Source of the DNA: Candidatus Latescibacterota bacterium
GTDB lineage: Bacteria; Latescibacterota; UBA2968
DNA length: 64,000 bases
Direction: 5' to 3'
Assembly: GCA_965204745.1 (NCBI GenBank)
Contig: OZ242010.1
Location: forward strand, 4,320,001-4,384,000
A model generated the notes under the pieces. It was not told the origin of the DNA. It did not search any database and worked only from the letters and a program-made list of their open reading frames with translations. The position numbers and the translations under genes were made by a program. Positions 2,575 through 52,517 of the stretch are shown piece after piece (the first letter of the stretch is position 1; the number at the start of each line of letters is the position of its first letter).

Positions 2575-2796
2575 GGTTAACGGGCGGGTGAATGGGCCGC
2601 AGGGGTTGAATGATTCTGCGGCGTTCGGGCGTCAACCGCGCGAGCAAGGCTTCTGAAGGGCGATACCCGTAGCGATTGTTTCCCCAGGTCATAGCGATAG
2701 ATCAAATGCCCGGCCTTGACGCGCCTCACTGCGTCGCCGGCATCGAGAAACACCTCCACGCAAATCGAACAAATAATCTTCCACTTCAGTCGGCAT
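2561..2796 (-). pseudogene. Internally deleted phytanoyl-CoA dioxygenase (PhyH) family remnant
   Basis: SD plus MPTEVEDYLFDLRG (typical N-terminus), then VEVFLDAGDA, IYRY and WGNNRYGYRPSEALLARLTPERRRIIQP (typical C-terminus), in different frames within 236 bp. Confidence 0.65.
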
Positions 2797-4189
2797 CAAA
2801 TTTTTCCTCCCCATTCCTCTCAAAAATTGCCGTGGCAACCTGCATCGTTTCAGCCACAGCATTGCGGAGGTCCCCCTGGAGGTCGTGAACTTGGCGCGCG
2901 CAAGCGACGAGGCGTTCGCGCGGTTCGCCGCTTTTGAGCATGGGCAGGAGGAACTCCCGTTCAAAAATGGATTCTCTGATTTCCGGCTGGACAGCCGTTA
3001 TCGCGAGATAATAAACCTGCTTCCGAAACATTTCCGATGTGAAAATGCTCCACAACAGGAGTGCCTCTGCATGGGTTTCTGGGCGAATCGCAATAAACCC
3101 GGTCGTGACCAAGTGCCCATCAAACTCGGGCGGCACAATGACGGCAGTGCCCCGAGAGGAAATGTTCTTAGCCAACAAAACATCGTTGGTCTGCACCTGC
3201 AATCGCGCCCGGGTGGGCAGATTTTCAAAAAAATCCTCGCGGTAATTGACGATAGCCCCTTCTCGGGTCACGTCTCCGATCTCAAAATATCGAAAGAGTT
3301 TGCCCTCGCACGCCTCTCCTTCTCGTGCGGTCAACTTTGGCACAATACGAAAATCACTACCGGTTAGCAACTCGACGCGTCCTTCCACAGCGCGGGCTTG
3401 CAAATCGGCCCGCGTTCTCGCCAAATCCGGCGCGTAGTAAAACGCATCCAACCGCTTGGGATCGAGTTCGTCCGCAGGCACGACAAACGTCTGGAAAGGA
3501 CAGCCCAAGTTCTCATTCTGAACCGCGTTGGGTTCAAACACTTCGATGATCTCCCCTTTCATCCGCCAGTGATTCCAGACCTCTGTCAGCCGCGGGATGT
3601 TATTTCGTTCAGGTGTGTAACGCTGATAGTCGTCATGGCCCACATTGTTGAGTATGCCCATGAAAACCGCGCCTTGTTCGTCGTTTTTGTTTTCGCGTTT
3701 CACAAGGTGAATGATGGACGTTTGCACCCCGGCTTGTGCCTGCAAAAAAGTATTGAACGGCAAAGCGATGACTTGGCGGACGATAAAATTTTCCAAAATA
3801 TAATCGCGGTATGTCTGGCTGTTCTCGCCATTGAGAACGGTGTTGTCGATCACCGTGAGCAACTCACCGCCAGGGTTGAGAAGCTCGCAATACCGCTCGA
3901 GAAACAAAACATTGGATTTCGTACTGCTCTCGCGCTTCCCATTCTTGGTGACAGCGATTTCGTATTGATCCAGCATCCGCCTCTCGTCGTCATTTTTGCG
4001 TTGGTACGAGATGCTGAACGGCGGGTTGGTCAGCACGACGTCAAATTTGCGACGCTCAAAAATTAAAAGTTGTTGGAGTTCTTTGACCTCGTTGGTCCTC
4101 TCCAGCGATAAGCCGGTGGGCGGCAGAAGTTCGCCATCGAGGGTATCGGCCACAAATACCGTACTGCCCCCGTCTCCGTGCAAATACAT
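2786..4189 (-). CDS. 5'-truncated N-6 DNA methylase with C-terminal specificity (TRD/HsdS-like) domain
   Basis: Starts at MYLHGDG (normally internal), has FDVVLTNPPF motif IV, a RLDAFYY linker and an HsdS-like tail. No SAM-binding motif I. The ORF-track 5' extension overlaps the GT2 gene. Confidence 0.75.
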   Translation of the reverse strand: MYLHGDGGSTVFVADTLDGELLPPTGLSLERTNEVKELQQLLIFERRKFDVVLTNPPFSISYQRKNDDERRMLDQYEIAVTKNGKRESSTKSNVLFLERYCELLNPGGELLTVIDNTVLNGENSQTYRDYILENFIVRQVIALPFNTFLQAQAGVQTSIIHLVKRENKNDEQGAVFMGILNNVGHDDYQRYTPERNNIPRLTEVWNHWRMKGEIIEVFEPNAVQNENLGCPFQTFVVPADELDPKRLDAFYYAPDLARTRADLQARAVEGRVELLTGSDFRIVPKLTAREGEACEGKLFRYFEIGDVTREGAIVNYREDFFENLPTRARLQVQTNDVLLAKNISSRGTAVIVPPEFDGHLVTTGFIAIRPETHAEALLLWSIFTSEMFRKQVYYLAITAVQPEIRESIFEREFLLPMLKSGEPRERLVACARQVHDLQGDLRNAVAETMQVATAIFERNGEEKFDAD

Positions 4190-4202
4190 ATCGTTCCCTA
4201 TC

Positions 4203-5171
4203 CTATTGCGTTGTTGTCTTGGACTGATCCTGGTCGAGTTCCATTGTTCGCACGCGCGTGGAAACATCTTTGAGGATGAGGCGGTTGGTGGCAATGAGAT
4301 CGGCGACAATGCCGGTGAGGAACATCTGGAACCCGGCGAGCAGGAGAATGGCCGCGAGGATGAGCGATTGAATGTGGAGTTCGCCCTCGTCGGTAAAAAA
4401 GAAAAAATAGAGAAACCGAAACCCGAGCAACGCGCCCGCGGAAAATGTGACCGCGCCAAACGCGAAAAAAATCCGCAGGGCTTTGTAGCACGCGTACGTC
4501 CGTAGGGAAATCTCGCCCGACTTAAAGACAAATTCCCCTAAATTTGTGAACAGGCGCGATTCGCGCGTTTTGGGATTGGTGCGAATGGGCACGATTTCAA
4601 TGGCGAGGTGGTCTTGCCCTGCTTGCACGACTTGCTCGGCGGTGTGATCAAAATCCGTGAATATCAACAAATGCAGGGCCGCATCCCGGGAAAATGCGCG
4701 AAACCCACAGGCGACATCGGGCACCTCAATCTGGGCGAGGCGGCTGATCACGCGGCTACCGAGCCACTGGAGCCATCGCTTCAAAAAAGAAAAGTGGTCG
4801 ATGCTGCTCGTTTGCCGATCCCCAATGACCATGTGGGCGCGCTTGTCGAGAATGGGTTGCACGAGCGCGGCAATATCGCCGCCGTAATACTGGTTGTCGC
4901 CATCCGTGTTGACGATGATATCCGCGCCGAGTTTGAGGCAGGTGTCAAAGCCCACCTTGAAGGCATGCCCCAAGCCGCGATTTTTGGGGAACGTGACGAC
5001 GTGATCCACGCCGAGTTCCCGCGCCACTTCAGCCGTGCGGTCATCCGACCCGTCGTCAATGACCAAGATCTCGACTTTGTCAATGCCGGGGATAGCACGC
5101 GGAATATCCTCGATCGTCGCGGGCAGGGTTTCTTCTTCGTTGAGGCAGGGAATTTGGACGATGAGTTTCAT
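4203..5171 (-). CDS. Glycosyltransferase family 2 (DPM1/GtrB-like) with two C-terminal TM helices
   Basis: IPCLNEE, IDDGSDD, NTDGDNQY (DxD), hydrophobic C-terminus. Confidence 0.9.
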   Translation of the reverse strand: MKLIVQIPCLNEEETLPATIEDIPRAIPGIDKVEILVIDDGSDDRTAEVARELGVDHVVTFPKNRGLGHAFKVGFDTCLKLGADIIVNTDGDNQYYGGDIAALVQPILDKRAHMVIGDRQTSSIDHFSFLKRWLQWLGSRVISRLAQIEVPDVACGFRAFSRDAALHLLIFTDFDHTAEQVVQAGQDHLAIEIVPIRTNPKTRESRLFTNLGEFVFKSGEISLRTYACYKALRIFFAFGAVTFSAGALLGFRFLYFFFFTDEGELHIQSLILAAILLLAGFQMFLTGIVADLIATNRLILKDVSTRVRTMELDQDQSKTTTQ

Positions 5172-5298
5172 GTTGGGACCTGGGGATTAGGGGTTGGCGT
5201 GTATTCGTTTCTTGACGAAATCAAAGACATTTGGTCACATGGAAATCGCGTCACTCATCCGCATCCAACAGACGCTAAACGTCATTTAGACTGCACAT

Positions 5299-5643
5299 CT
5301 ATGGCGTCAGACCCGTGCGTACTAGGTCAATAATTGTTTCTATAATTTGCCTGAACGCATCCGGGTTTAAGGTACCGACTTGGGTTTTAATGAGATTGCG
5401 GTTGGCAGTGAACAATTTTCCCGAACGGACATAGCTCACTAGATGTAACGATCCTATGGAAAAACTGGCGTTGGTCAATGCAATAGCTCGCCTATCACCA
5501 TAGGGGCGGCTCGTGATTTGGCAGAGAATCCAATCGCCTCGATCCACAGATGCAATCGCCACCGCAGGTCTCAATTTCGCTTGTGACAAATCGGAAAACG
5601 GAAAAGGCACTAAGACGACGGCACCTGTTGCAAGTGTGACCAT
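5299..5643 (-). CDS. PemK/MazF family toxin
   Basis: VVLVPFPFSDLSQAKLRPA...ILCQITS signature. Confidence 0.9.
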   Translation of the reverse strand: MVTLATGAVVLVPFPFSDLSQAKLRPAVAIASVDRGDWILCQITSRPYGDRRAIALTNASFSIGSLHLVSYVRSGKLFTANRNLIKTQVGTLNPDAFRQIIETIIDLVRTGLTP

Positions 5644-5831
5644 GCGGCATCCTCCTCGGGACGATTCCAGTCTTCAGCAAGCGCGGCTTCACTCAGCAAC
5701 GCCGTGTCGGGAATATCCGGGGCATCGGCGAGGATGGTCACAAATGCGCGGCGTGGCGCTGGCAACTGGAGCGGCTCCAGCAACTGTACGTTGCCTTGTT
5801 CGTCAATCGTAGCTTCAATGGTTTTCAGCAC
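5610..5831 (-). CDS. Putative antitoxin of the MazF-like toxin
   Basis: 73 aa acidic protein ending LSEAALAEDWNRPEEDAAWSHL, overlapping the toxin start. Confidence 0.8.
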   Translation of the reverse strand: MLKTIEATIDEQGNVQLLEPLQLPAPRRAFVTILADAPDIPDTALLSEAALAEDWNRPEEDAAWSHLQQVPSS

Positions 5832-5895
5832 TGTTTCTCCTTTCTACCCGCACAGCCTTGATTTCCGCTTGGATTTCTTTGTGTTGATGAGCGAC

Positions 5896-7575
5896 TCAAT
5901 CGCCGAAAATCGCGGCGGATGCAGCGGCGGCGCGGGCCGTGCGCTCTTCGGCGGACAGATCGCCCATCGCCTTGTAAAAGGCTTCGTCGTAATTGCGGGT
6001 CTTGATCACCACGGGCATGGGCACGGCATGCCCGAACACGAGGGCCTGCTGTTTGGAATCGAGACTCGCCAACACGCTTCGCAAGCCCGCGGCATTGGAT
6101 ACGCCCGTCAACACGCCTTGAATGTCTTTTTCGTCGTTGAGCAAGGCCGTGATCTTCGTGCCGAGTTGCGAGAGCACTTCCTCGTCAATGCCCGAAGGTC
6201 GCTGGTCAACGACGAGGAGGGAGACGTAGTATTTCCGCATCTCTCGGGCGATGGTGCCAAAAATGGTCTGTTTTGCCGTGGCCGGGTTGAGAAACTTGTG
6301 CGCTTCTTCGATGGTGATGACCAAGTGCCGGGGTTGGTCTTCGGTCTTTTGCGATGCGTAAAACTTTTCGCTCTTGGTGACGTACTGCTCGTGAATGCGC
6401 CGCGAGAGAATATTCGCCACGAGCAAATACGCGAGCATACTCGTCTGCCGCCCAAATTCGAGCACGATGTGAATGCCGCGGTCGATGTAGTCCATCATCG
6501 TATCCACCGCGTCCGCGCTGTCGAGGTGATCGACCATAAAGGGGAAATTGTCGATGCGCTTGAGCTTGCGATGCAAGGCGGACAGCGAGCTTTTGTTCGC
6601 GCCGATATCCTCGGCGAATTGCTCGACATCCGGGCCATCGACAGAGAGCAACTGCCGTAGCCAGCGGTTTTTGTACATCGCATAGACGAGATAGGCCGAT
6701 TCGGCAGCCGTGGGATTGAGTTGCAACTCGTCTTGCAGTGCGATCACATCCTCCACCGCGATTTGATCGTAGGCGATGTACACCTCGTGATCGGGCTGAA
6801 TCCCGCGCTGCCGGGACGATTCCGGATCCAGAGAAAACAGGGCGACTTGATTGCCGAACAACTGCTTGAGGCCCTTGACAAAACTGCTTCCCCCCTGCCC
6901 GCCGCCCTCTTTCATCGCGCGAAACCCGTACTCGTTGTGCATGTCAAAAATGAGATTGACGGCCTTCTCGTTCTTGATCAGGCCGCACAATACCAAGCGC
7001 GTGAGAAAGGATTTGCCCGTGCCGGTCTTGCCAAAAATGCCATTGCTGCGCTCGACAAACCGGTTGAGATTGATGCACACCGGCGTGTCCATGTCCAACG
7101 GCGTGCCCATGTTGAAAAACCGGTCGTCCTTTTCCTCACTGCCAAACACGCGCGACACATCTTCCTCGTCGGCCTCCACGACTTTGGAAAAATGACTCGG
7201 AATGGTCTTGACCGGGCGCGGCTCATCCACGATTTCCTCGCCCTGTTCGAGCATGAGCATGGGCCGCAACGCGACCGTGACGTACGTGCTCGACCCATTG
7301 AGCACGCTGTGCAACAACTGGTCCCCGTCGCGGGGCGGGTAGAGCAAAATGTCGGGATTGGTGGCATCGAGGGTCAAATCCGTGATCATCGAGAAGAACT
7401 GATTTTTATACCCCTCGATCACCACGAACTTGCCGGCTTTGACGTCCTCAACGCTGCGGTTGGGGTTGAGTTTCATCTCGACGCCCTCGGTCAAAGACCC
7501 GCGCGTGACAACGCCAATTTCGCCGATGGTCTGAATATCCGGCGACCCGTTGAGATTGTTCCAGAGATCGTTCAT
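5896..7575 (-). CDS. herA: HerA/FtsK family ATPase (DUF87) with N-terminal HAS barrel
   Basis: Walker A GKTGTGKS, IFDMHNEYG, IEEAHKF, AREMRKY, DQRPS. Confidence 0.9.
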   Translation of the reverse strand: MNDLWNNLNGSPDIQTIGEIGVVTRGSLTEGVEMKLNPNRSVEDVKAGKFVVIEGYKNQFFSMITDLTLDATNPDILLYPPRDGDQLLHSVLNGSSTYVTVALRPMLMLEQGEEIVDEPRPVKTIPSHFSKVVEADEEDVSRVFGSEEKDDRFFNMGTPLDMDTPVCINLNRFVERSNGIFGKTGTGKSFLTRLVLCGLIKNEKAVNLIFDMHNEYGFRAMKEGGGQGGSSFVKGLKQLFGNQVALFSLDPESSRQRGIQPDHEVYIAYDQIAVEDVIALQDELQLNPTAAESAYLVYAMYKNRWLRQLLSVDGPDVEQFAEDIGANKSSLSALHRKLKRIDNFPFMVDHLDSADAVDTMMDYIDRGIHIVLEFGRQTSMLAYLLVANILSRRIHEQYVTKSEKFYASQKTEDQPRHLVITIEEAHKFLNPATAKQTIFGTIAREMRKYYVSLLVVDQRPSGIDEEVLSQLGTKITALLNDEKDIQGVLTGVSNAAGLRSVLASLDSKQQALVFGHAVPMPVVIKTRNYDEAFYKAMGDLSAEERTARAAAASAAIFGD

Positions 7576-7584
7576 GGGAAAATG

Positions 7585-7644
7585 CAGTAGTCAGTGGTCA
7601 GTAGTCAGTGGTCAGTGGTCAGTGGTCAGTGGTCAGTGGTCAGT
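7585..7644. repeat. Heptamer tandem array (CAGTGGT/CAGTAGT)n, about 8 copies
   Basis: Directly visible immediately upstream of the herA start. Confidence 0.95.
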
Positions 7645-7714
7645 CCGCCCAACCCCCATCACCCGTAGATCAGCGACATGCTTCGCGGCCGTTGCGTTCA
7701 TCCGCGGTTGCGCC

Positions 7715-8314
7715 TCATTGGGAAACCCGCCTCATAATCGAACTGAGGCGGTCGTAGTCGTCGCGGATGAGGCGGCACAGGTCTTTGCCAATGCTCACCA
7801 GATAGGGCATGTCAAACGCACGCGCGGCCCAGGCATTTCGCACCGAGGCGATGATGAGATCGTCCGCGGGCAGGCGATTGCCATTGCCGCACAAAATGCT
7901 GCGGAGAAAATCGCCGCTGTTGGTCAGGGCTTTGACCTCGGATTCCGAGCAGGGAAACACAAAACTGTGGATGCCGGGCGGTTGCGGGGGCAAGACCCGT
8001 TGCGGGCCTTTGTCGTCGCCATAGCCGATAATCACCGCTTCAAACTCGGTTTTGAGCAGTTCGAAAATTTGCGGTTGTTCCTCGCGCAACTGCTGCTCGG
8101 TCAAGCCGTAGGCCGTGGCGCGGCGGTTGGGTTCAATCGAGTGCGTACACACATTGAACACCAAGCCATACACGGGCAACGCGCCGCGGGTTTTGACAAA
8201 GGATCCAAACGGCGGCGCGCCATTGAGCTCGCGGCTTTCTGACGTGAATTGCGACGTGGAACTCTCGATGATTTCCCCGATAAAGTCGCTGATATCAAAT
8301 TGCACGAGTGACAT
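7715..8314 (-). CDS. Stand-alone HAS-barrel domain protein (HerA/NurA operon partner)
   Basis: IGEIIESSTSQF, PPFGSFVK, PPQPPGIHSFV; located between nurA and herA. Confidence 0.8.
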   Translation of the reverse strand: MSLVQFDISDFIGEIIESSTSQFTSESRELNGAPPFGSFVKTRGALPVYGLVFNVCTHSIEPNRRATAYGLTEQQLREEQPQIFELLKTEFEAVIIGYGDDKGPQRVLPPQPPGIHSFVFPCSESEVKALTNSGDFLRSILCGNGNRLPADDLIIASVRNAWAARAFDMPYLVSIGKDLCRLIRDDYDRLSSIMRRVSQ

Positions 8315-8322
8315 GGAAACCT

Positions 8323-8559
8323 CTATTGTGAAAGGGCATACCAGTCTGACGCTGTAATTTCACTTTCGAGAATCGCTTCGACTTCCCGAATCATGAAACG
8401 CAACTGCGGAACAGAGTATTCAGAATTAGACGGAATAGCCAATCGGTGATTTTGATAGGTCATGAATTGGTGACGTGTCCCTGAATAAGGGCCATCAAAT
8501 CCGAGTTTGCGAAGCCGACGAATGAAATCGCGGCGTTTACATATCACCCAACGGTTCAT
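8323..8559 (-). CDS. hicA: HicA family toxin
   Basis: LRKLGFDGPYSGTRHQFM...LAIP, 78 aa, coupled to hicB. Confidence 0.85.
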   Translation of the reverse strand: MNRWVICKRRDFIRRLRKLGFDGPYSGTRHQFMTYQNHRLAIPSNSEYSVPQLRFMIREVEAILESEITASDWYALSQ

Positions 8560-8809
8560 GCACGGGCACCTTGTTTAAGTCGATACCCTTAACAACGGGC
8601 AGTTTATGTCCGAGTTTGATGCCCACAAAAATCCAATCTTCGAGTGTGGCATGGAGCTCTGCTTCACAGGTGCGGAGCGAATTGGCAAATGCCACAACGC
8701 CCTTACACCCGGGAATGCGTCCGCCGAACGTACCGTCCTCGAGCGCGTCGTATTCGGCCTGTGCCATGAGATCATGGATATAATCGGTGAGGATGAATTG
8801 TGTCGCCAT
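8537..8809 (-). CDS. hicB: HicB family antitoxin
   Basis: EDGTFGGRIPGCKGVVAF...LEDWI, 90 aa. Confidence 0.85.
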   Translation of the reverse strand: MATQFILTDYIHDLMAQAEYDALEDGTFGGRIPGCKGVVAFANSLRTCEAELHATLEDWIFVGIKLGHKLPVVKGIDLNKVPVHEPLGDM

Positions 8810-8839
8810 AGTGGGATTCTCGCTTATATGACCACAGCC

Positions 8840-9013
8840 TTATGAAAAAGAAAATGTGTCCTCATTCTGCATCGGTGGCGAAACGTAGGCGATGATTCGC
8901 TCAAAAAATACGACATCATCTTTGAACCTGCCCAGTCCTGTATTGCAACTGTCGCAGATCCATTCCCGCCCCTTTCCGGTTTTGTGGTCGTGGTCGCGTA
9001 CGATATTTGCCAT
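8840..9013 (-). pseudogene. C-terminal stub of an Hpy99I-like / endonuclease VII-type His-Me restriction nuclease
   Basis: ANIVRDHDHKTGKGREWICDSCNTGLGRFKDD; only 57 aa; TAATG-coupled to the upstream MTase. Confidence 0.75.
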
Positions 9014-9807
9014 TACGCCATCCCTGTCATCTGTATTTGTCCGCCATAAACGCGTTTTTTTGCGATTGCAATGTACTCTTTGGAAATATCCACGCCGATG
9101 AATCTGCGATTGTGCTTGAGAGCCATTTTGCCGGTCGTGCCACTGCCACACATGGGATCGAAGACGAGGTCGCCGGCATTTGTCCAGGACAAGATGTGGT
9201 CTTCCGCCAACTTTTCGGGAAAAACCGCGGGGTGTCCAAACGCGATTTTGTCGGTTGTCGTGCCGCCATAGCCGACCGCGTAAGGCCAGATATTTGTGCG
9301 GGTCTTTTCCTTTTTCAGTTCCTTGAGCACCTTCTTGTTCACCCCATCCGCGCCCTTGTTGTGCGTCAGCATCTCCATGCCGTGTCTGACCGTTTTCACT
9401 TTTATGGGATTAAACGTAGTCGGTTTGCCCCGCGACAACACAAACATAAACTCATAGCAATTCGTGTACGCATTGCTCCGCATAAACGGCGTGTTCTTCT
9501 TTTGGTAGATCATGACATCGTGCATCTGAAAACCGATGTCCTGAAAGAACAAGCCCTGCCGAAAACTGGTGAGGGTTCGCCCGCCATTGATCTTGTCCCC
9601 AACGACCCAGACGACGACCCCGCCCTGTTTTGTCACCCTGAATAGCTGCGTTGCGATATTCTCAAAGTCAAACGAGTAGCCCTTGTAATTTCGCAAATTA
9701 TCGTAAGGCGGCGAGGTCACGGTCAAGTCGATGGACGCCTCATCCATACGCGACATAAACGCCACGCAGTCCTCGACAAAAATTCCTTCTTCCATCATTT
9801 TCGCCAT
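9013..9807 (-). CDS. Beta-class DNA methyltransferase, probably N4-cytosine
   Basis: TSPPY motif IV precedes HPAVFP and DPMCGSGTT motif I. Confidence 0.9.
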   Translation of the reverse strand: MAKMMEEGIFVEDCVAFMSRMDEASIDLTVTSPPYDNLRNYKGYSFDFENIATQLFRVTKQGGVVVWVVGDKINGGRTLTSFRQGLFFQDIGFQMHDVMIYQKKNTPFMRSNAYTNCYEFMFVLSRGKPTTFNPIKVKTVRHGMEMLTHNKGADGVNKKVLKELKKEKTRTNIWPYAVGYGGTTTDKIAFGHPAVFPEKLAEDHILSWTNAGDLVFDPMCGSGTTGKMALKHNRRFIGVDISKEYIAIAKKRVYGGQIQMTGMA

Positions 9808-9873
9808 TTTGTTTCCTCGCGTCCAGAGTTCACATTGCGACTCTGGCGATTGCGGCAACCTTTCCGCGTCGAG

Positions 9874-10044
9874 TTACCAGTTGCCAAAAGTTTTGATCGC
9901 ACTGCCATAGACAAGGATCGTTTCATTGCAATTCCGTCTTTCTTGGATATTGTCCAACAAGAGTTCCATAACGGGTATTTTGTTGATGTTAAAACGCACT
10001 TCCCGATAGTGTTGGGGACTGTCATTTCGCATTTCGAGTTCTCC
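9874..10044 (-). pseudogene. Probable C-terminal stub of a restriction endonuclease gene
   Basis: A frame not in the ORF track reads GELEMRNDSPQHYREVRFNINKIPVMELLLDNIQERRNCNETILVYGSAIKTFGNW*, starting inside the 3' end of the Dam-like MTase. The resemblance to MTase-linked endonucleases is from memory and unverified. Confidence 0.5.
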
Positions 10045-11020
10045 GAATTAACAACTCGTGTGATTTTTTGACATGCGAGCCTTTGTTATTTTTCGTGCGA
10101 TTTTTTCCGATTCTCGTATCGCCCTGACCAAATGTGTACTGCCATTGCGGGGTTTCGATATGAAAATCCGAATACCAGTTGCGGATGGTGTCACAGTCGT
10201 TGTAGGACAAGATGAATCCGCCCTGATGTGAGAGGAGTAAGTCTCGGAGTTTTTCGTGCGGAAAGCCAACGTGATGGATCGGGAAGTTGCGGTGCGGATA
10301 CATGCCGACAAAGGTTTTTCCATCTTCGAGATAATAAGGCGGATCGCAATACAAAAAATCGCTTCTATGCGCGGGAATTGAATCCTCAAAACTCGCGCAT
10401 TGCACGGACATGCTGTTTGCGTGAAAGCACTTCACCTTTTCGAGCATCCTCGCATAGCGAGTTTCATTGAGATAGATATCCGAAGGCCAGCCGAGAAAAT
10501 GCGGGCCATAAGATGTGTTGGAATTAAAATAATAGTGTGCCGCGAGATCGCAGGGATCGAGCTTTTCCCCGTCCTTCCAATGGGAGACGAGTTTGTCCTT
10601 GACTTTTTTGAACGTGGCGCGGTCGGGCGAAAACCGTTCCAAGCGATTGTAGAGCGCGTCCCTCTCTCTCAACTGAATGTCCCAGTACGCGCATAAGATG
10701 TCGAATACATCATAAGCCACGACTTCTATACCCAACTCTTTGGCGCATGCCACTTCGACCGAACCGCCGCCTAAGAATGGCGACACCAATCGAATCAATC
10801 CCTTCGGCAAACGCGCTACGACATACCCCACCGCGAGGCTTTTCCCGCCGGCATAGCGCAGGGGCGATCCGAGATAGCGTTTGTAGTCCTGCTTCCCATT
10901 GCTTTTTAGCGCGTGCAAAAACCGCTCTTTACGCGAAAGGGCGTGACGCACCTCATCGAGACCAAATAAAGTGGGTACCGATATTTCATCGACAGGTGAA
11001 ACCGCAATTTTTTCTTTCAT
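10022..11020 (-). CDS. D12/Dam-class N6-adenine DNA methyltransferase
   Basis: SPLRYAGGKS, SPFLGGGSVE, FLYCDPPY, FILSYND. Confidence 0.92.
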   Translation of the reverse strand: MKEKIAVSPVDEISVPTLFGLDEVRHALSRKERFLHALKSNGKQDYKRYLGSPLRYAGGKSLAVGYVVARLPKGLIRLVSPFLGGGSVEVACAKELGIEVVAYDVFDILCAYWDIQLRERDALYNRLERFSPDRATFKKVKDKLVSHWKDGEKLDPCDLAAHYYFNSNTSYGPHFLGWPSDIYLNETRYARMLEKVKCFHANSMSVQCASFEDSIPAHRSDFLYCDPPYYLEDGKTFVGMYPHRNFPIHHVGFPHEKLRDLLLSHQGGFILSYNDCDTIRNWYSDFHIETPQWQYTFGQGDTRIGKNRTKNNKGSHVKKSHELLIRRTRNAK

Positions 11021-11034
11021 GGTGTTCTCCTTAC

Positions 11035-11185
11035 GCTACATCGGTGGCGAAACGTAGGCGATGATTCGTTAAAAAAATACGACATCAGGCGGCGAGGTCA
11101 CGGTCAAGTCTATGGACGCCTCATCCATACGCGACATAAACGCCACGCAGTCCTCGACAAAAAACCCTTCTTCCATCGTTGCCAT
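11035..11185 (-). pseudogene. Collapsed duplicate of the 9013-9807 MTase and the 8840-9013 nuclease
   Basis: 11088-11185 nearly equals 9708-9807 and 11039-11087 nearly equals 8870-8918. Reads MATMEEGFFVEDCVAFMSRMDEASIDLTVTSPP|DVVFF*. Confidence 0.9.
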
Positions 11186-11188
11186 TTC

Positions 11189-12067
11189 TTACTCCTCGCC
11201 GAACAGTTCCAAAGTTGGCGCGTCTTCGTCTGCGAGCCGAATGAAATACTTCCCCGACCGAATCCGATTCAGGGCGAACTCATAATACGACGGGATAATT
11301 TCAAAACCGACATAGTGCCGCCCTTTCATCTTGCTGACGACGGCGACTTGCCCCGAACCTAAAAAGGGATCCAAAACCACATCGCCCTTTTTGCTGGAGT
11401 AGTCGAGGATTTTCTCGATGAGCGCAGCGGGTAATTTTGTCGGCGTTTTCACCGCGCCATTCCAATACTCCCGCTTGATGTCCCAGACATCCTCTTTGTC
11501 CCTGTAATGTGCAGTGCCCCCGGTTTCTGTTTTTGCATCCTTATCAAAGCGAGAGAAAGGATAGAATTGCCGCTTCTGATCGTCTTTACAGACAAAGAGG
11601 CAATGATAATGCGAGGTGACATACTTCCGCTTTGTGACGACGCCAAACTGATATTTCCAGATCAGGTGATTAACCGTTGTGAGCGCGCACCGATCAATGG
11701 CGATCAGCAAGTCTTTCAGGTGATTCCATCCCGAGAAGATATACATGCTCCCGGACGCTTTGAGCACCCGCGTCGCCTGTTTAAGCCAAGCCTGTGTGAA
11801 CGCGAGGTAATCGCGGCTTTCTATCTCATTGTAACCTGGAAGCACCTGGTCGCCCTTTCGATTGTAGTTGTTGCGCGTCGCTTGAAAGTCAATGGCGAAT
11901 GGCGGATCTGTGATGATCAGGTCGATGCACGCCGCTGGCATGTCGGACATGAGCGAAATGCAATCGCCCTGCTTAATGGTGTCTCGCCATGATTTCACAA
12001 ATTCTGCCATCTTATCGCTTTCCTTTCTGACCAATTTTGCCATTTCTTGTTTTCGTGTCTCACTCAT
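11189..12067 (-). CDS. Beta-class DNA methyltransferase (N6-adenine/N4-cytosine)
   Basis: ITDPPF motif IV, TPTKLP, LDPFLGSG motif I; ATGA overlap with the nurA stop. Confidence 0.9.
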   Translation of the reverse strand: MSETRKQEMAKLVRKESDKMAEFVKSWRDTIKQGDCISLMSDMPAACIDLIITDPPFAIDFQATRNNYNRKGDQVLPGYNEIESRDYLAFTQAWLKQATRVLKASGSMYIFSGWNHLKDLLIAIDRCALTTVNHLIWKYQFGVVTKRKYVTSHYHCLFVCKDDQKRQFYPFSRFDKDAKTETGGTAHYRDKEDVWDIKREYWNGAVKTPTKLPAALIEKILDYSSKKGDVVLDPFLGSGQVAVVSKMKGRHYVGFEIIPSYYEFALNRIRSGKYFIRLADEDAPTLELFGEE

Positions 12068-13284
12068 ACCGCCGCGGCTATTTTTTTGAGTTGTTTGAGC
12101 GACTGTTCGATTTTGACGTCGTTTTTGACAAAGGCATCTTTTAGGAACTTGAAGAAGATATCGCGGTCGGCGCCGCGCACGATGGCGCGCTCGTGAGATT
12201 CGGACAAGACCACGGGATAGCCCCGCCCTTTCTCGACTTGATCGACAATGGTGGCGTGGACGAGGTCGAGCAACTCGCGGTCGCGGGCCACCCATTCGGG
12301 GATTTCCACGCGGCCGATCTCCCAACCCGTGTGAACGTAAAAAAAGCAGATGTGGTGGGGGCCGTAGTCGTCGAGGATTTTGGACGCGCTTCGGTACACC
12401 CCACTGCGCTCGCCGCGCTTGAGTTTGCGGGCGTACAGCATATCGTCGGTCACGCCGGCGATGGGTTCGCAGGGAATGGTTGCGGGCGGTTCGGCATTGG
12501 CATCGAGATTGAGACCGTGTTGCGCTTCGGCGGCTTTCCACGGGCACCGGTCGCAGTTGGGCGGCTGTTCAGGACACAGGCCCACGCGCAGGGCATTGAG
12601 CACATCCGCACTGCCGGGATCGGAAATATACCCCGCAATGGGCACGCGCAATGCGCGCAATCGCTCCAAACTGGCGAGCGTGGTCTTGAGGGTTTCGCGG
12701 CGAAAATCGTAGGGTTTGCCCTCGAGCATCCACAAAATCAAGGTACCATCTGTCAGCCCGGCGAGGGTTCGCCCCTCTGCGTGCGCCTGATCGGCCAGGG
12801 CCACGACCTTTTCCAATTCCATTGTATTGCGCCGCATTCCCACCACGTCGCGGGTGATGGCACTGCGCTTGCCCGCCCACTCTTGGTAGAGATCGTCCTC
12901 ATCGTAAAACAGCGTGGGTTCACTGCTCAACACGGGCCGCTCCCCGCTGCCGTAGTGAATGACGACATAGCCGATATTGATGAGAAAACAGTTGCCGACC
13001 TCGTGCCGATCCGGGAAAATCTGCGACCCATCCGCGGCGATGACAGTGAGTTCCTTGGGCCGGTCCGGCTTTGGACACGTCTCGGTAATCGGCCCGCCCG
13101 GTTGGGCCACCAGCCAAGACGTGCGGCTGCGCGCAATTTTAACGCTCAGACTTTCCCACGCATCTTCCCAGCGGTCCATTTCGGAACACGCCAACTCAAT
13201 GCGCGCAAAAAAATCGTCTTGCATGGTTCGGGCATCGACAGCCATCTGGTCGATCTGGCGTTTGAGCACACCGTAGTTGAGCAT
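12064..13284 (-). CDS. nurA: NurA family nuclease
   Basis: IAADGSQIFPDRHE, LTDGTL, GYIS, GRVEIPEW, GRGYPVVLSESHERA. Confidence 0.9.
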   Translation of the reverse strand: MLNYGVLKRQIDQMAVDARTMQDDFFARIELACSEMDRWEDAWESLSVKIARSRTSWLVAQPGGPITETCPKPDRPKELTVIAADGSQIFPDRHEVGNCFLINIGYVVIHYGSGERPVLSSEPTLFYDEDDLYQEWAGKRSAITRDVVGMRRNTMELEKVVALADQAHAEGRTLAGLTDGTLILWMLEGKPYDFRRETLKTTLASLERLRALRVPIAGYISDPGSADVLNALRVGLCPEQPPNCDRCPWKAAEAQHGLNLDANAEPPATIPCEPIAGVTDDMLYARKLKRGERSGVYRSASKILDDYGPHHICFFYVHTGWEIGRVEIPEWVARDRELLDLVHATIVDQVEKGRGYPVVLSESHERAIVRGADRDIFFKFLKDAFVKNDVKIEQSLKQLKKIAAAV

Positions 13285-13293
13285 GGGAAACTC

Positions 13294-13453
13294 CAGTTGT
13301 CAGTTGTCAGTTGTCAGTTGTCAGTTGTCAGTTGTCAGTTGTCAGTTGTCAGTTGTCAGTTGTCAGTTGTCAGTTGTCAGTTGTCAGTTGTCAGTTGTCA
13401 GTTGTCAGTTGTCAGTTGTCAGTTGTCAGTTGTCAGTTGTCAGTTGTCAGTTG
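13294..13453. repeat. Perfect heptamer tandem array (CAGTTGT)n, about 22-23 copies
   Basis: Directly visible immediately upstream of the nurA start. Confidence 0.97.
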
Positions 13454-13665
13454 ACCAATTCTAACGAACATAGCGGTGGGGAGCGGGCGGGGACTGACTA
13501 CTGACTACTTGGGCGGTAGGGTCAGGTGGGGACTGACCACTGACTGCTGTCAGTTGTCAGTTGTCAGTTGACTAATTCTAACGAACATAGCGGTGGGGAG
13601 CGGGCGGGGACTGACTACTGACTACTTGGGCGGTAGGGTCAGGTGGGGACTGACCACTGACTGCT
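13432..13665. repeat. Near-perfect tandem duplication of about 117 bp
   Basis: gac(c/t)aattctaacgaacatagcggtggggagcgggcggggactgactactgactacttggg...actgct occurs at 13453 and 13570. Confidence 0.9.
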
Positions 13666-13759
13666 ATCAGTTGTCAGTGGTCAGTCCGCACCGCCGCCCA
13701 TCAAGCGGTCAGGCACCCCGTCGCCGTACACGCACGAGCACGACGTAAGTTTAATCGCT

Positions 13760-14317
13760 CTACACGATTGATTCGTAAAAAAATTGCCGGCCACCGCCGG
13801 CCACGCTGCCGTCGCGCACGCGGCACACGAGGCCCATCTTTTGAAGGGCGTTGAGCCGGTTGCACGCGATATTGATGTTTTTCCTCAAGGCGTGGGCGAA
13901 CTCGGACGACGTCCCTTTCTTGCGGGTCAGCACCACGTCCAGGGCTTCTCGAATGGGCGTTTTGAGCACGCCGATCACCTGAATGTCGCCATCGTCGTCT
14001 TTGAAAAGCGCGGCCAAGTTCCGCAACGTGAGCACGGCCTCGAAGGTTTCGCGCACGGAATCATTGGCGTTTTGAATAAAGGCAAAGCGATGCCCGAGTT
14101 CGCCACTGCCGATTCGCATGAGGAGTTTGGAGAGCAATTCGTCGGCACAGGAAATGTCGATGAACGAGACGTTGGCAAAGTCGAGCGGCGTAACCGCATC
14201 GTCATCGGCTGTTTGCATGAATGCCATGAGCTGATTGAGCAATGCTTCGCCTCGGTCGCGCCCACTCAAAATGCCCGTGGGCGTTTGAAAAATAAAGGGA
14301 GGGGTTTGTTCAGGCAT
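13760..14317 (-). CDS. STAS-like (DUF4325-type) domain plus C-terminal winged HTH, putative regulator
   Basis: LSGRDRGE...LDFANVSFIDISCADEL; C-terminal SSEFAHALRKNINIACNRLNALQKMGLV. Confidence 0.65.
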   Translation of the reverse strand: MPEQTPPFIFQTPTGILSGRDRGEALLNQLMAFMQTADDDAVTPLDFANVSFIDISCADELLSKLLMRIGSGELGHRFAFIQNANDSVRETFEAVLTLRNLAALFKDDDGDIQVIGVLKTPIREALDVVLTRKKGTSSEFAHALRKNINIACNRLNALQKMGLVCRVRDGSVAGGGRQFFYESIV

Positions 14318-14384
14318 GCATCGTTCCTCAAAATTCGGTCGAGATGATGTTGGTGGAGATTGGCGGGGGAACGATGGGGAGAAG

Positions 14385-14511
14385 GTGGTCAGTGGTCAGT
14401 GGTCAGTGGTCAGTGGTCAGTGGTCAGTGGTCAGTGGTCAGTGGTCAGTGGTCAGTGGTCAGTGGTCAGTGGTCAGTGGTCAGTGGTCAGTGGTCAGTGG
14501 TCAGTGGTCAG
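14385..14511. repeat. Perfect heptamer tandem array (GTGGTCA)n, about 18 copies
   Basis: Directly visible. Confidence 0.97.
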
Positions 14512-14895
14512 CAGAACAGATCACCTTTGGGGATGGGTGGAGACTGGTAGTTGATGGCATCTTGTATCTTTGGGCGAGCACGGAGGCAATCGTCCCTTTT
14601 AATTGAATTCAGTTAAGTTGTGGGAAATTAGGCGTTATGAAATGATATGTCAAGTGTTTTTTATCGGGCGAGGGAAAATCCAAGGGTGCGTGCCGACATT
14701 GGCTATGCCCGTGCTTGCGCGTGCGCCGGAATGGCGATGGGGCAAGGCAAAGAGCGTTGATGTTGCAGTTGTACACCATTCCGCAGATTCGGCTATGCCG
14801 TGCTTGCAAATTGCGATATATTAAGCCCATCGCTCCTAACACATACGCAAAGGCGCGATGCCCTATGCTGATGCTACTCATAGTGGAACAAAGGT

Positions 14896-17839: not shown

Positions 17840-18940
17840 ATGTCGAGACTGAAGCATATCGAAATCAAGGGTTTCCGATCCATCAAAGAGATGGCACTAG
17901 AACTCCGACCACTCAACGTCTTGATCGGTGCTAACGGAGCAGGTAAGAGCAATCTCATTGCTTTTTTTAACTTGGTGAACGAATTGATGGGTGAACGGCT
18001 TCAGCAATATATTGGTGCGACGGGGCGGGCGACAGGCAATCTGTATTTTGGCCCCAAAATAACCCCTCAATTGGAAGCAAAAATGGCGTTTGAAGTCGAA
18101 AATGGAACGGACACCTACCAGATACTGCTGCGTCACGCTTCCGGTGATTCTCTGTTTTTCGCTGAAGAAATACTCTCTTATCAGACAATAGACTCTCCGA
18201 CACCAAAGGTCGTACCATTGGGGGGGGGTCATTGGGAAACGCGGATTAGAGCCACGGCAACAGGAGGCGAATCAGTGGCACAAGCGGTCTGGCATCTGCT
18301 GGGCTATTGCCGCGTCTATCACTTCCACGATACATCGCCGACTGCGAGAGTTCGGCAGTATTGTTACGTGGGTGACAACCGATGGCTTATGCCCGATGCG
18401 GCGAATCTGGCGGCGGTATTGTATGCGTTAAAGTCCAGCGAGGAAATAGCGTATCGCCGGATCGTGAGGACAATTCAACAGGTGGCACCGTTCTTTGAGG
18501 ATTTTGATCTCGAGCCGACCCATTCCAGAGACATCATTCTCAACTGGCGCCATCGCGAGTCCGACCTCATTTTTGGGCCCCATCAATTCTCAGACGGTAC
18601 CCTGTGGGCGATATGCCTGATTTCGCTGCTGTTGCTACCCGAAAAAAATCGTCTCAACCTGATTGTGGTGGATGAGCCGGAACTCGGATTACACCCCTAC
18701 GCGCTCCAAGTGATCGCTTCGCTGTTTCGCGCAGCAAGCCACCACACGCAGGTTCTCGTCAGCACGCAGTCCAGCGCGTTTCTCGATGCTTTTGAGATAG
18801 AGGATATCGTGATTGTCGAACGAAATAACGAGGCTACGGAGGTTCGCAGGCCGGATGCCGAAAAGCTCGACGCTTGGCTGGAAGACTATTCGGTCGGGGA
18901 AATTTGGGAAAAAAACATCATCGGTGGGGGGCCGCACTGA
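17840..18940 (+). CDS. ABC-type ATPase (AAA_21/COG4637-like)
   Basis: Walker A GANGAGKS, signature FSDGT, Walker B VVDEPELGLHP, STQS. Confidence 0.9.
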   Translation: MSRLKHIEIKGFRSIKEMALELRPLNVLIGANGAGKSNLIAFFNLVNELMGERLQQYIGATGRATGNLYFGPKITPQLEAKMAFEVENGTDTYQILLRHASGDSLFFAEEILSYQTIDSPTPKVVPLGGGHWETRIRATATGGESVAQAVWHLLGYCRVYHFHDTSPTARVRQYCYVGDNRWLMPDAANLAAVLYALKSSEEIAYRRIVRTIQQVAPFFEDFDLEPTHSRDIILNWRHRESDLIFGPHQFSDGTLWAICLISLLLLPEKNRLNLIVVDEPELGLHPYALQVIASLFRAASHHTQVLVSTQSSAFLDAFEIEDIVIVERNNEATEVRRPDAEKLDAWLEDYSVGEIWEKNIIGGGPH

Positions 18941-20123: not shown

Positions 20124-20228
20124 CAAAAGCGATAATACACCTAACGACAATGGTTGATCCCTAGACACATCCCTTAGTGTTTCCGATCTGCTTACACCAA
20201 GGGGATGATAACGCAAAGGAATGGAAAG

Positions 20229-21587
20229 ATGGCAAAACGACGCACGTCAAAACGAGAAGGCATCACGGCGATTTCCGTGCAGGACTTCAAGTCGCTTGAC
20301 CGAGAAAGTCGGATTGAGATTCGCCCGCTCACGATTTTGGCAGGAGCGAACAGTTCTGGCAAGTCGAGTATGATGCAACCCCTGTTGCTGATGAAGCAGA
20401 CGCTCGAAGCGAGTTATGATCCCGGCCCCCTTTTGCTGGATGGTCCAAATGCCAAATTTACGTCCGTTGACCAATTCATTTCGCATATTCAGAAAAACGC
20501 CCATCGTCAAGCATTTAGCGTCGAAATAGAACAGGCGAAAGATACGACGCTTAAAGTTGTGTTTTCTCTTATCGAGGAGCGCGTGCTTGAAATCACAGAT
20601 ATGGTCATAAAAGATAAAAAAGACGCACTTCCGATTCATTTGAGACCAAATCTAAGTTCAAAAAAGATAAAAAAGGCTTTCTCAACATGGTTTGCAAAAA
20701 AATTTGCAAAAAAAATAAAATGGCCTAAAGGATGGGAGTTTAAGGTTGTGAGAAATCGGTGTTTTCTCGAGGTCGTTATGGATATTGCATCAGTACCACG
20801 AGATGCAACCAATTTCTTTCGACTTCCTATATATGATCTACTCATACGTAGCATGCGTCATGCCACCGATAGATATGATCCACTCATACGTAGCATAATT
20901 CACGTCCCCGGATTGCGCGGCAATCCGGAGCGCGTTTACAAAACGACGGCGACAGGCCCTGATTTCCCCGGCACATTTGAAAATTATGTCGCGAGTGTTG
21001 TTGCACGCTGGCAAGCAGGAAATGACGCCCGTCTCAATCAGCTCGAGGAGATGCTTGTCGCCCTCGGCCTAACAGGGAAAATTGCCACAAAGGCTGTCGA
21101 TTACACACAAATTGAGTTGCAGGTTGGCAGACTTCCGCAACCAACATCGGCTGGCGATCTCGTGAATATCGCCGATGTTGGCTTTGGCGTGTCGCAAGTG
21201 TTGCCCGTGCTCGTCGCGCTTCTCATTGCCGGACCGGAGCAACTCGTGTATCTCGAGCAACCGGAACTGCATTTGCACCCGAAAGCGCAATATGCACTGG
21301 CGGAAATTTTGGCGGAAACAGCACGGCGCGGCGTAAGGTTGGTCGTGGAGACGCACAGCGCGTTGTTGTTGCTCATGGTGCAGACATTGGTGGCAGAGGG
21401 GAATCTCGATCCCGAGTTGGTGAAATTACATTGGTTTTCGCGTAGCGATGAGAACGGAATGACGTCAATTCAAAGTGCGGATTTGGATGAGAACGGCGCT
21501 TTTGGGGATTGGGCCGAGGATTTCGGCGATATCGAGTTGATGGCTGAAGGCGCGTATTTGGATGCCGTGGAAGGGCGGAGCAAATAA
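20229..21587 (+). CDS. ABC-type ATPase (AAA_15/AAA_21, DUF3696-like C-terminus)
   Basis: GANSSGKS, VGFGVSQVLP, LEQPELHLHP, VETHS, LDENGAFGDW. Confidence 0.88.
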   Translation: MAKRRTSKREGITAISVQDFKSLDRESRIEIRPLTILAGANSSGKSSMMQPLLLMKQTLEASYDPGPLLLDGPNAKFTSVDQFISHIQKNAHRQAFSVEIEQAKDTTLKVVFSLIEERVLEITDMVIKDKKDALPIHLRPNLSSKKIKKAFSTWFAKKFAKKIKWPKGWEFKVVRNRCFLEVVMDIASVPRDATNFFRLPIYDLLIRSMRHATDRYDPLIRSIIHVPGLRGNPERVYKTTATGPDFPGTFENYVASVVARWQAGNDARLNQLEEMLVALGLTGKIATKAVDYTQIELQVGRLPQPTSAGDLVNIADVGFGVSQVLPVLVALLIAGPEQLVYLEQPELHLHPKAQYALAEILAETARRGVRLVVETHSALLLLMVQTLVAEGNLDPELVKLHWFSRSDENGMTSIQSADLDENGAFGDWAEDFGDIELMAEGAYLDAVEGRSK

Positions 21588-32869: not shown

Positions 32870-33466
32870 TTATTTTTTCGACGTTACTTACAGATTAGCA
32901 AATGTGTTGCTTGCTCATTTAAGGCGTTTGGTCCTTTGATGGCTTCTCGCTCTGGTTGCTCTGATGGCGTTGACCGAGGGGACCTATCCCCCGGCCCCTT
33001 TCCTGCGAGGAAAGGGGAGTAAAGCACCTTTGATGGCTTAGGTTGCTCTGATGGCATTGCGCGAGGGGACCTATCCCCCGGCCCCTTTCCTACGAGGAAA
33101 GGGGAGTAAAGCACCTTTGATGGCTTCTCGCTCTGGTTGCTCTGATGGCGTTGACCGAGGGGACCTATCCCCCGGCCCCTTTCCTACGAGGAAAGGGGAG
33201 TAAAGCACCTTTGATGGCTTCTCGCTCTGGTTGCTCTGATGGCGTTGACCGAGGGCATAAAGCGATTAAAAATCCCTCATCAATCCCCTCGCAAAACCGC
33301 TCACAGTTCCCCCCTTCCTCGCAGGAAGGGGGGTTAGGGGGGTAGGTCCCGATAAGGCGCGACTATTCCAGTTTCTCAAACCGAGAGCATATTCTGCGAT
33401 ATGCCTTGATTTTTTCGATAAACTGCTCAAGCCAGTTGCTTTGCTCGTAAATGTCAACACAACCTA
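32870..33466 (-). mobile_element. IS5-derived MITE, module-A type, with 3 tandem ~80-85 bp REP-like hairpin units
   Basis: Reverse-complement match to 48958-49377; TIR aaatgtcaacacaaccta ending at 33466; units contain cccctttcct-acg-aggaaagggg. Confidence 0.85.
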
Positions 33467-33515
33467 CTGACTACTGATTGCGGTGGATGGGCGGGGGCTG
33501 ACTACTGACCACTGA

Positions 33516-48852: not shown

Positions 48853-48957
48853 CTCTTGATCCAAAGTGAATAAAAGGTGAGAGGTGAGAGGCAAGACGGG
48901 AGAGGCAAGAGGTAAGAAGTAAGACGGGAGAGGCAAGAGTCAGTGGTCAGTGGTCAG

Positions 48958-52491: not shown

Positions 52492-52517
52492 CCACCCGTG
52501 CGTGCCCTACCGCCATA

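Follow-up and report, generated by a model that had tools for sequence, protein, structure and literature searches.

The 64,000-nucleotide (nt) stretch of a Candidatus Latescibacterota genome analyzed here (contig OZ242010.1, hereafter the window) carries a minus-strand operon of up185, nurA, a stand-alone HAS-barrel gene, and herA. Between nurA and the HAS-barrel gene lie three intact DNA methyltransferase (MTase) genes, two stubs that match the 3' parts of restriction nuclease genes, a 158-nt relic, and a hicBA-like toxin-antitoxin (TA) pair (Table 1). The full-length nuclease genes to which stub 1 and stub 2 correspond are called R.C and R.B, respectively. All inserted genes and fragments are co-directional with the operon. 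An original prediction made from the DNA letters had placed these features, apart from the relic, the 12-nt repeat around MTase A, and up185, which it missed, and open reading frame (ORF) and domain checks bore out every coordinate on the minus strand. The stop codon of nurA overlaps the start codon of MTase A (ATGA), and the stop codon of MTase C overlaps the start of stub 1 (TAATG). The TA pair looks intact; its HicB domain was clear, and its HicA_toxin match was weak and below the cut-off. The G+C content was 0.47–0.53 over positions 8001–12000 compared to 0.56–0.60 in nurA and herA, as expected for acquired DNA.

Table 1. Genes, gene remnants, and direct repeats of the nurA–HAS junction and its operon in the window
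Feature	Position	Strand	Description
up185	13760–14317	-	First gene of the operon, conserved; without Pfam family
nurA	12064–13284	-	Pfam NurA, 1.2e-28
12-nt direct repeat AAGAAATGGCAA, left copy	12037–12048	-	Flanks the MTase A insert
MTase A	11189–12067	-	Beta-class N6/N4 DNA methyltransferase, DPPF; solitary, intact
12-nt direct repeat AAGAAATGGCAA, right copy	11179–11190	-	Flanks the MTase A insert
Relic, 158 nt	11028–11185	-	Between MTase A and MTase B
Relic, MTase C part	11087–11185	-	Codons 1–33 of MTase C; 96% over 94 nt (direct repeat D3)
Relic, R.C part	11028–11087	-	3'-terminal 60 nt of the Hpy99I-like gene; 90% over 60 nt (direct repeat D4)
MTase B	10022–11020	-	D12-class (Dam-like) adenine methyltransferase, DPPY; intact
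Stub 2	9874–10044	-	56 codons, 3' part of the probable nuclease R.B
MTase C	9013–9807	-	Beta-class N6/N4 methyltransferase, SPPY; intact; partner of the Hpy99I-like nuclease
Stub 1	8840–9013	-	57 codons, 3' part of the R.Hpy99I-family nuclease R.C
hicB-like antitoxin gene	8537–8809	-	Pfam UPF0150-like, 1.4e-23
hicA-like toxin gene	8323–8559	-	Pfam HicA_toxin, E 0.0014, 19.1 bits vs cut-off 27
HAS-barrel gene, stand-alone	7715–8314	-	Pfam HAS-barrel, 6.7e-07
herA	5896–7575	-	Pfam DUF87, 1.3e-32, and HAS-barrel

MTase A and MTase C were assigned to the beta-class N6/N4 methyltransferases (PF01555). MTase A matched Pfam N6_N4_Mtase at 2e-38 over model positions 1–219 of 221, and MTase C matched it at 1.7e-42 over positions 1–221 of 221. 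In MTase A, DPPF is followed by DPFLGSG, which is the order of motif IV ahead of the S-adenosylmethionine motif FxGxG; in MTase C, SPPY is followed by DPMCGSG. MTase B, which has a DPPY motif, matched Pfam MethyltransfD12 at 4.3e-32 over positions 1–252 of 253 and belongs to the D12 class (PF02086). Dam itself was rejected as the identity of MTase B, as the Dam subfamily model TIGR00571 gave 61 bits against a cut-off of 114.85. All three methylases matched Type II methylase models in PADLOC, with MTase_II at 4.6e-62 for MTase A and MTase_II PDLC03281 at 5.1e-113 (9–307 of 309) for MTase B. PDB sequence searches confirmed the class of all three enzymes, with N4-methylcytosine (m4C) and N6-methyladenine activity not separable for MTase C; MTase A matched CcrM (1.8e-26).

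The site was compared across relatives that were collected through NurA, which had 907 homologues at E ≤0.001 among 8000 scored candidates, 27 sequences being aligned. A scan of genome contigs gave 334 pattern matches and 296 confirmed relatives, and the best 80 loci were kept (L001, L002, and so on). Nearly all of them are Latescibacterota metagenome-assembled genomes, many as complete chromosomes. By tblastn of the window proteins, nurA and the HAS-barrel gene conserved after it were both found in 70 of the 80 loci. The ten loci without both (L018, L036, L039, L040, L043, L045, L046, L047, L049, and L052) are short contigs, or Moduliflexus/Vecturithrix-group loci without a HAS or HerA match. 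The nurA–HAS gap is 3749 nt in the window and at most 200 nt in 55 of the 70 loci. It measures 200–1000 nt in nine (L003, L005, L007, L010, L014, L015, L026, L027, and L030), eight of which contain hicB or hicBA in the interval, and exceeds 1000 nt in six (L001, L002, L004, L025, L048, and L061). Among the 18 closest genomes, the HAS–herA gap is longer than 200 nt only in L001, and the up185–nurA gap is never longer than 203 nt.

The six longest intervals differ in content. That of L001 contains MTase C, an intact R.C, and hicB with a foreign tail. The L002 interval contains a 40-nt 5' relic of hicB, MTase B, an intact R.B, MTase C, and the last ~20 nt of hicA. In L004, R.C is cut down to its first 65 codons, which follow MTase C and are joined to the middle of hicB. 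The L025 interval (11179–14233) contains two metabolic genes in addition to a bSEFIR defence gene (PADLOC 3.6e-51); by eye, the products of the two resemble a Gfo/Idh/MocA-type oxidoreductase and a sugar-isomerase-like TIM-barrel protein. L048 and L061 each carry one gene, enolase superfamily-like from the reading of its translation. At the same site, hicB was present in 11 of the 80 loci, and hicA copies of 75–90% identity lie 3' of hicB in L005, L007, L010, L014, L015, L026, and L030. The hicA gene is missing in L001–L004 and split over two frames in L005, where a long-read indel error could be the cause. The foreign tail of the L001 hicB gene (L001:12642-12959) resembles the C-terminus of TnpB, with a weak match to Cas12f1-like_TNB (E 0.044). 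A close copy of MTase A was absent from all 80 loci (tblastn), and no nuclease remnant lies beside this gene in the window.

The variable junction is limited to the close relatives of the window and a few others. The original prediction had expected a variable nurA–HAS interval among relatives, and the range from at most 200 nt to more than 1000 nt with differing contents agrees with it. It had also described the operon as a landing site for restriction-modification (R-M) systems. The capture of R-M systems was upheld, but the specificity for them was not, as the site also takes up hicBA, bSEFIR, and metabolic genes. At the other end of the operon, a gene like MTase A and MTase C stands directly after herA in ten of the 80 loci (L062, L063, L066, L070, L071, L072, L074, L075, L079, and L080; ~13.6–14.5 kb), which form a distant clade with NurA ~52% identical. 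L053 has only a fragment of this post-herA methylase and L068 has none. Since the gene is present, fragmentary, or absent, the 3' end of the operon would be a second variable R-M site.

Stub 1 corresponds to residues 142–187 of the 195-aa product of L001:12031-12618 (tblastn, 93% identity, E 7e-25). It covers only positions 39–80 of the 82-position Pfam Endonuclease_7 model (5e-15), and is therefore the 3' part of a gene. Residues 4–190 of the L001 protein align with residues 12–198 of the 200 residues of Hpy99I (PDB 3fc3_A, E 9.8e-75), with ~112 identical residues among 187 aligned positions as counted by hand. The L001 protein also matched Pfam SH3_17, His_Me_b4a2, and Endonuclease_7, and PADLOC REase_II at 1.4e-77 (2–188 of 190). 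By these matches, the L001 gene is a full-length R.Hpy99I homologue, in line with the Hpy99I type that had been guessed for stub 1, and stub 1 is a true 3' remnant of a restriction nuclease gene, not a chance ORF. An Endonuclease VII-type homing nuclease was considered for stub 1 and rejected, because the full-length L001 gene matches Hpy99I end to end.

The structural report on Hpy99I gives as required parts an N-terminal beta-barrel and two beta4-alpha2 repeats, each with a zinc ion held by four Cys (PMC2699513). According to the same report, the first repeat reads the major groove, DNA contacts come from both repeats, and the catalytic residues D148, H149, and N165 belong to a beta-beta-alpha-Me fold. 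Stub 1 retains the catalytic Asp-His pair and the Asn metal ligand (RDHDH...CDSCN, equivalent to D148, H149, and N165 through the L001 alignment). The barrel and the first repeat are gone, as is the first CXXC of the second repeat, which is half of the second zinc site. With these parts lost, the product of stub 1 is almost certainly inactive. M.Hpy99I is listed as a beta-class, Type IIP m4C enzyme for CGWCG (PMC3936762), which agrees with the pairing of Hpy99I-type nucleases and m4C methylases named in the original prediction. Avoidance of CGWCG tied to the nuclease gave no signal, the observed/expected ratio being 0.87 in the window, 0.88 in L001, 0.77 in L002, and 0.71 in L008, where the site is empty. 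Palindromes that are depleted in the window, as CGWCG is not, were GCWGC (0.56), GGWCC (0.61), and CCWGG (0.65), which may reflect other restriction systems of the lineage.

Stub 2, likewise not a chance ORF, corresponds to residues 202–257 of the 257-aa product of L002:12252-13025 (tblastn, 86%, E 1e-26). No family was assigned to the stub 2 ORF in Pfam, NCBIfam, or PADLOC. A representative search with its 56 aa gave 50 matches at E ≤0.001, many of them short fragments; the full-length matches are ~257–264 aa, so stub 2 is a C-terminus. The L002 R.B had 922 homologues at E ≤0.001 among 1161 candidates. This family, with homologues P0171-P0290, has a length of ~255 aa and is well conserved, with 62–94% identity among the 120 matches listed. 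R.B had no match in Pfam (including R-HINP1I), NCBIfam, or PADLOC, and a PDB sequence search returned none at E ≤1. Its structure model, made from 41 aligned sequences, reached a mean pLDDT of 91.5. The best structural matches of the model in the PDB were HinP1I 2fkc_A (E 6.5e-4, TM 0.47/0.49), HinP1I 1ynm (E 7.2e-3), MspI (E 0.011), and HhaI (E 0.25), and these top four are all Type II nucleases. In the Atlas, an R.HinP1I-named cluster with the family on 27% of its members scored 0.95 and ranked 15th, which is a lead. D51, D54, S61, and K63 are invariant in the 41-sequence alignment and are candidates for the catalytic D...(E/Q/N/S)xK; they lie outside the stub of the window. R.B is a probable nuclease whose fold may be HinP1I/MspI-like, and the family is probably an unrecognised Type II nuclease family. 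Both stubs, which the original prediction had read as nuclease remnants, have intact full-length genes in L001 (R.C) and L002 (R.B). The 64-kb window contains no second copy of R.C or R.B, and none of the three methylases has an intact cognate nuclease beside it.

The order of gains and losses was examined with a tree of concatenated NurA, HAS, and HerA sequences, with 24 rows comprising the window, L001–L017, and L019–L024. The incomplete L018, L026, and L030 and all loci from L025 on were left out. In the tree, L004 joins (L002,(L001,window)) at a support of 97/94, and these are all the bearers of MTase C. Because the four bearers form one clade, MTase C and R.C would have entered once. The nurA gene of the window is 95% identical to those of L001 and L002; MTase C is 91–93% identical to the copies of L001, L002, and L004, and MTase B is 89% identical to the L002 copy. 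R.C is whole in L001, is a fused 5' fragment in L004 and a 3' stub in the window, and was absent from L002 (tblastn at the locus). On these gene structures, R.C was lost three times, with a different lesion in each of the window, L004, and L002, and the methylase was kept each time. The losses of hicA follow a similar pattern. The repeated loss of a nuclease with retention of its methylase had been proposed beforehand, and it was found for R.C in these three genomes and for R.B in the window. The repeated captures proposed at the same time were borne out as captures but not in their frequency, with one gain each for MTase C with R.C, MTase B with R.B, and MTase A.

The ratio of nonsynonymous to synonymous substitution rates (dN/dS) of MTase C was 0.063–0.094 at dS 0.38–0.71, and that of nurA was similar, with 0.051–0.085 at dS 0.30–0.82. 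Low MTase C values were also obtained for pairs in which both genomes are without R.C. These substitution patterns place MTase C under purifying selection. One alternative is that the methylases are decaying leftovers without present function, which are intact since the nuclease deletions are recent, and that the array will erode. Relics, frameshifts, and fused fragments are common at the site in L001–L005. Stub 1 compared to L001 has a dN/dS of 0.07 with 15 differences, which suggests a recent deletion, and the relic is 96–97% identical to its source; both values fit recent events. However, the three genomes that have lost R.C (window, L002, and L004) all keep a full-length MTase C with its motifs conserved, and the pairs among them have dN/dS of 0.067–0.090 at dS 0.45–0.71. 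Furthermore, both deletions in the window stop at the methylase ends and leave the reading frames open. Such neutral erosion is considered unlikely.

The lesions in the window could be read from alignments with the sister genomes. Compared to L001, ~430 nt of R.C are missing. The breakpoint falls in the final two codons of MTase C and changes its C-terminus from ...AGVV(E) to ...TGMA. An extra 7-nt deletion alters the last residues of stub 1, and the relic copy has the same deletion. Compared to L002, ~600 nt of R.B are missing, with the breakpoint five codons ahead of the MTase B stop (...LLIWKDTN to ...LLIRRTRNAK), where the last 5 residues of MTase B are swapped for 7. The joined sequences at both deletions share only 2–3 nt, which in our reading of the alignments points to illegitimate deletions and not to repeat collapses.

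The relic consists of two fused pieces. Its MTase C part is 96.7% identical to the MTase C of the window, compared to 84–89% for those of L001, L002, and L004. The R.C part is fused directly to it, contains in-frame stops, and is 95.9% identical over 49 nt to stub 1 of the window. Overall, the relic pieces have 84–92% identity to the other genomes. Being closest to the copies of the window itself, the relic suggests that the MTase C module was duplicated within this lineage and later gutted. The repeats flanking the unit of MTase B and R.B are single-copy in L001, and the left one joins two distant parts of the target. The segment of MTase A between the 12-nt repeats measures 858 nt; AAGAAATGGCAA occurs only twice in the 64-kb window and once in L001, in the MTase C leader.

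These junctions also bear on whether the array is an assembly artefact, namely a chimera of L001-like and L002-like strain haplotypes made by the metagenome assembler. In favor of a chimera, close relatives are polymorphic at the site, and the 94-nt and 60-nt repeats could mislead an assembler. However, no more than 2–3 nt are common to the sequences joined at the relic junction and at the two deletions, unlike in a repeat-mediated misjoin, the relic is nearest to the copies of the window and not to those of L001 or L002, and MTase A occurs in none of the 80 loci. We regard a chimera as extremely improbable.

We conclude, with a probability of about 0.8, that the nurA–HAS junction is an insertion hot spot for promoterless addiction modules in this lineage of Latescibacterota and that two of the methylases are orphans derived from R-M decay. 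According to the proposed history, hicBA would have been at the junction first. The Type II pair of MTase C and the Hpy99I-family nuclease would have entered once, in the ancestor of the four genomes, to give the order nurA, MTase C, R.C, hicBA, and HAS. The second pair, MTase B with the probable nuclease of HinP1I/MspI-like fold, may then have entered upstream with duplication of the MTase C module. The last arrival would have been the solitary MTase A, which came in beside nurA along with a 12-bp duplication. In the window, short-homology deletions would have removed the 5' 75–80% of both nuclease genes, starting from the last 2–5 codons of the methylases, and another deletion would have taken most of the duplicated MTase C module. 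In L001, the repeat may have collapsed later, and in L002, the first copy and the second R.C-hicBA may have been deleted.

In the proposed mechanism, the methylases would be transcribed by read-through from the operon and would be active orphans. Loss of the nuclease first would be forced, since loss of the methylase first would be lethal. The orphans would be retained because methylation protects against the same R-M systems circulating in sister genomes, such as R.C of L001 and R.B of L002. A protective role for orphan methylases is among the proposals of Seshasayee et al. (PMC3424554).

Several observations weigh against this interpretation. As the left repeat beside MTase B is composite, models other than duplication are conceivable. 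No recombinase or att-like site was found at the insertion. The tree places L001 next to the window and L002 outside (99/97), yet MTase B is common to the window and L002, so that a loss in L001 or recombination between lineages is needed. The same site holds non-selfish genes in L025, L048, and L061. No terminator-like site was found on the minus strand within 8300–12060, but the promoter and terminator scan of 5200–14800 was uninformative on co-transcription, with promoter-like sites numbering 3 (expected, 6.0) and terminator-like sites 12 (expected, 12.3). In addition to the recent deletion that the dN/dS of stub 1 suggests, the low dN/dS of MTase C could largely predate each nuclease loss.

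Two further proposals connect the array to the function of the operon. In the first, the junction is an integrase-free capture site whose TA, R-M, and bSEFIR cassettes are expressed from a double-strand-break processing operon, with the methylases kept as a "vaccination" array against the R-M systems of the population. If this were true, DNA-breaking selfish modules would be co-regulated with the NurA-HerA machinery that resects their breaks; it seems quite unlikely to us. In the second, the methylases mark self DNA for NurA-HerA, and the whole operon is an R-M-like defence system. The methylase gene just after herA in ten of the 80 loci would favor it, as would the defence-type neighbors. These are bSEFIR in L025 and, on the downstream side of herA in the window, a PemK/MazF-like toxin gene and a fragment of an Eco57I-like methylase. 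However, nothing stands between nurA and the HAS gene in 55 of the 70 loci, and each stub-bearing methylase is paired with a classical Type II nuclease of its own in a sister genome. The operon genes nurA, HAS, and herA have dN/dS of 0.03–0.11, and to judge from their sequences the up185-nurA-HAS-herA operon is inherited vertically. NurA, the HAS protein, and up185 had no PADLOC match. The best PADLOC HerA match of the window HerA was 3.4e-37, and in NCBIfam it stayed far under the cut-off of every HerA model, with 90.6 bits against a cut-off of 800 for HerA_antiphage. The anti-phage HerA systems (Sir2-HerA and DUF4297-HerA) also differ in the partner, which here is NurA. Nothing in the analysis supports a functional tie of the methylases to NurA-HerA or to end resection, and a defence role of the whole operon is very improbable.

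The up185 gene was found upstream of nurA in most of the 80 loci (tblastn). The Atlas clusters nearest to it carry STAS-like names, and 34% of members have DUF4325 and 16% HTH_24, so that a resemblance to STAS-like/DUF4325 and helix-turn-helix proteins is a lead only. In the distant clade, an additional 235-aa ORF lies between up185 and nurA (L062:9242-9949). The spacer before up185, the up185–nurA spacer, and the HAS–herA spacer are filled with perfect heptamer tandem arrays (CAGTGGT x8.6, CAGTTGT x22.9, and GTGGTCA x18.1) and a 117-nt repeat (7585–7644, 13294–13453, 13431–13685, and 14385–14511; also 33498–33529 and 48939–48958). ACTGACC runs, similar to these heptamers, stand in place of hicA before the HAS gene in L001 and L002.

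Just downstream of herA, positions 5299–5831 (-) carry the PemK/MazF-like toxin gene and a small upstream ORF. The Eco57I/N6_Mtase-like ORF at 2786–4531 (-) covers only model positions 121–284 of 311 and may be truncated. Of the 89 ORFs of at least 170 aa in the window, 40 were picked by eye and scanned for families. Mobility genes among these 40 were a 547-aa TnpB-like ORF (44095–45738) and an IS110-family transposase (62983–63990), with no others. Tandem arrays at 32933–33255 (94 nt x3.5) and 52509–52935 (202 nt x2.1) share a ~45-nt core including CCTATCCCCCGGCCCCTTTCCTACG, which looks like a dispersed repeat element. The window also contains two AAA_21/AAA_15 ATPase genes and a Schlafen AlbA_2 gene (17840–18940, 20205–21587, and 53767–55116), families that are frequent in defence contexts.

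Across the four sister genomes, one R-M system can be seen both intact and disarmed in three independent ways, and the deletion junctions can be read at base resolution. This decay series gives direct support for the origin of orphan methylases through nuclease-first R-M decay. It also extends the Hpy99I family to Latescibacterota. R.B adds a large family (922 matches) without a model in the searched libraries and with a HinP1I/MspI-like predicted fold. Furthermore, a few bases between tightly spaced genes of a conserved operon can serve as an insertion hot spot. No earlier description of a cassette site in this operon was found in a limited look at the literature.

Two of the processes proposed here are already known. 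Orphan methylases are treated as degradation products of R-M systems by Seshasayee et al. (2012, PMC3424554). The window resembles the cases in that account, since a methylase is kept beside the remains of a nuclease gene and shows the conservation of an ordinary gene. It differs in that the ancestral intact state is present in sister genomes, the exact deletions are readable, and three methylases are stacked within a single junction of an operon. R-M insertion without mobility genes and with long target duplication is reported by Furuta et al. (2010, PMC2853133), whose criteria include both R and M genes in the insert, an insert of <20 kb, a flanking direct repeat of >30 bp, and a repeat that is single-copy in the insert-free genome. 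Likewise, MTase B and R.B have no mobility gene and are flanked by the 94-nt and 60-nt direct repeats. Unlike those cases, the left repeat consists of both ends of a 1.4-kb module, a module duplication with internal deletion has to be assumed, and the target lies within an operon. Integron cassette arrays are also similar, with cassettes, promoterless and co-directional, that are lined up at one site behind a resident promoter. However, the junctions here are irregular, with relics, a 12-bp duplication, and microhomology deletions. No integrase family was found in the 40 scanned ORFs, neither attI nor attC was found, and none of the repeats listed for the window is common to the cassette ends.

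The two nucleases were compared with their nearest known systems. The L001 nuclease shares the D-H pair, the Asn ligand, and the CXXC motifs with Hpy99I (PDB 3fc3/3gox) as described in PMC2699513, and its partner MTase C is a beta-class enzyme with SPPY, as M.Hpy99I is beta class in PMC3936762. The systems differ in host, which is Latescibacterota and not Helicobacter pylori, and in the window the nuclease is reduced to the last 45 homologous residues; the likeness of MTase C to M.Hpy99I is by class only. For R.B, the monomeric PD-(D/E)XK nucleases HinP1I and MspI (2fkc, 1ynm, and 1sa3) are the top structural matches and have a similar length (257 aa for R.B vs 247–262). In contrast, their sequence identity to R.B is only 11–12% with a TM of ~0.47, and the partner of R.B is an adenine D12 methylase and not a 5-methylcytosine enzyme. 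Furthermore, the searched copies of Pfam, NCBIfam, and PADLOC contain no model for the R.B family. The array is no new kind of system; R-M decay to orphan methylases and insertion without mobility genes are both known processes. What is new is the setting at a junction of tightly spaced genes in the up185-nurA-HAS-herA operon of Latescibacterota, the complete decay series, and a nuclease family outside the searched libraries.

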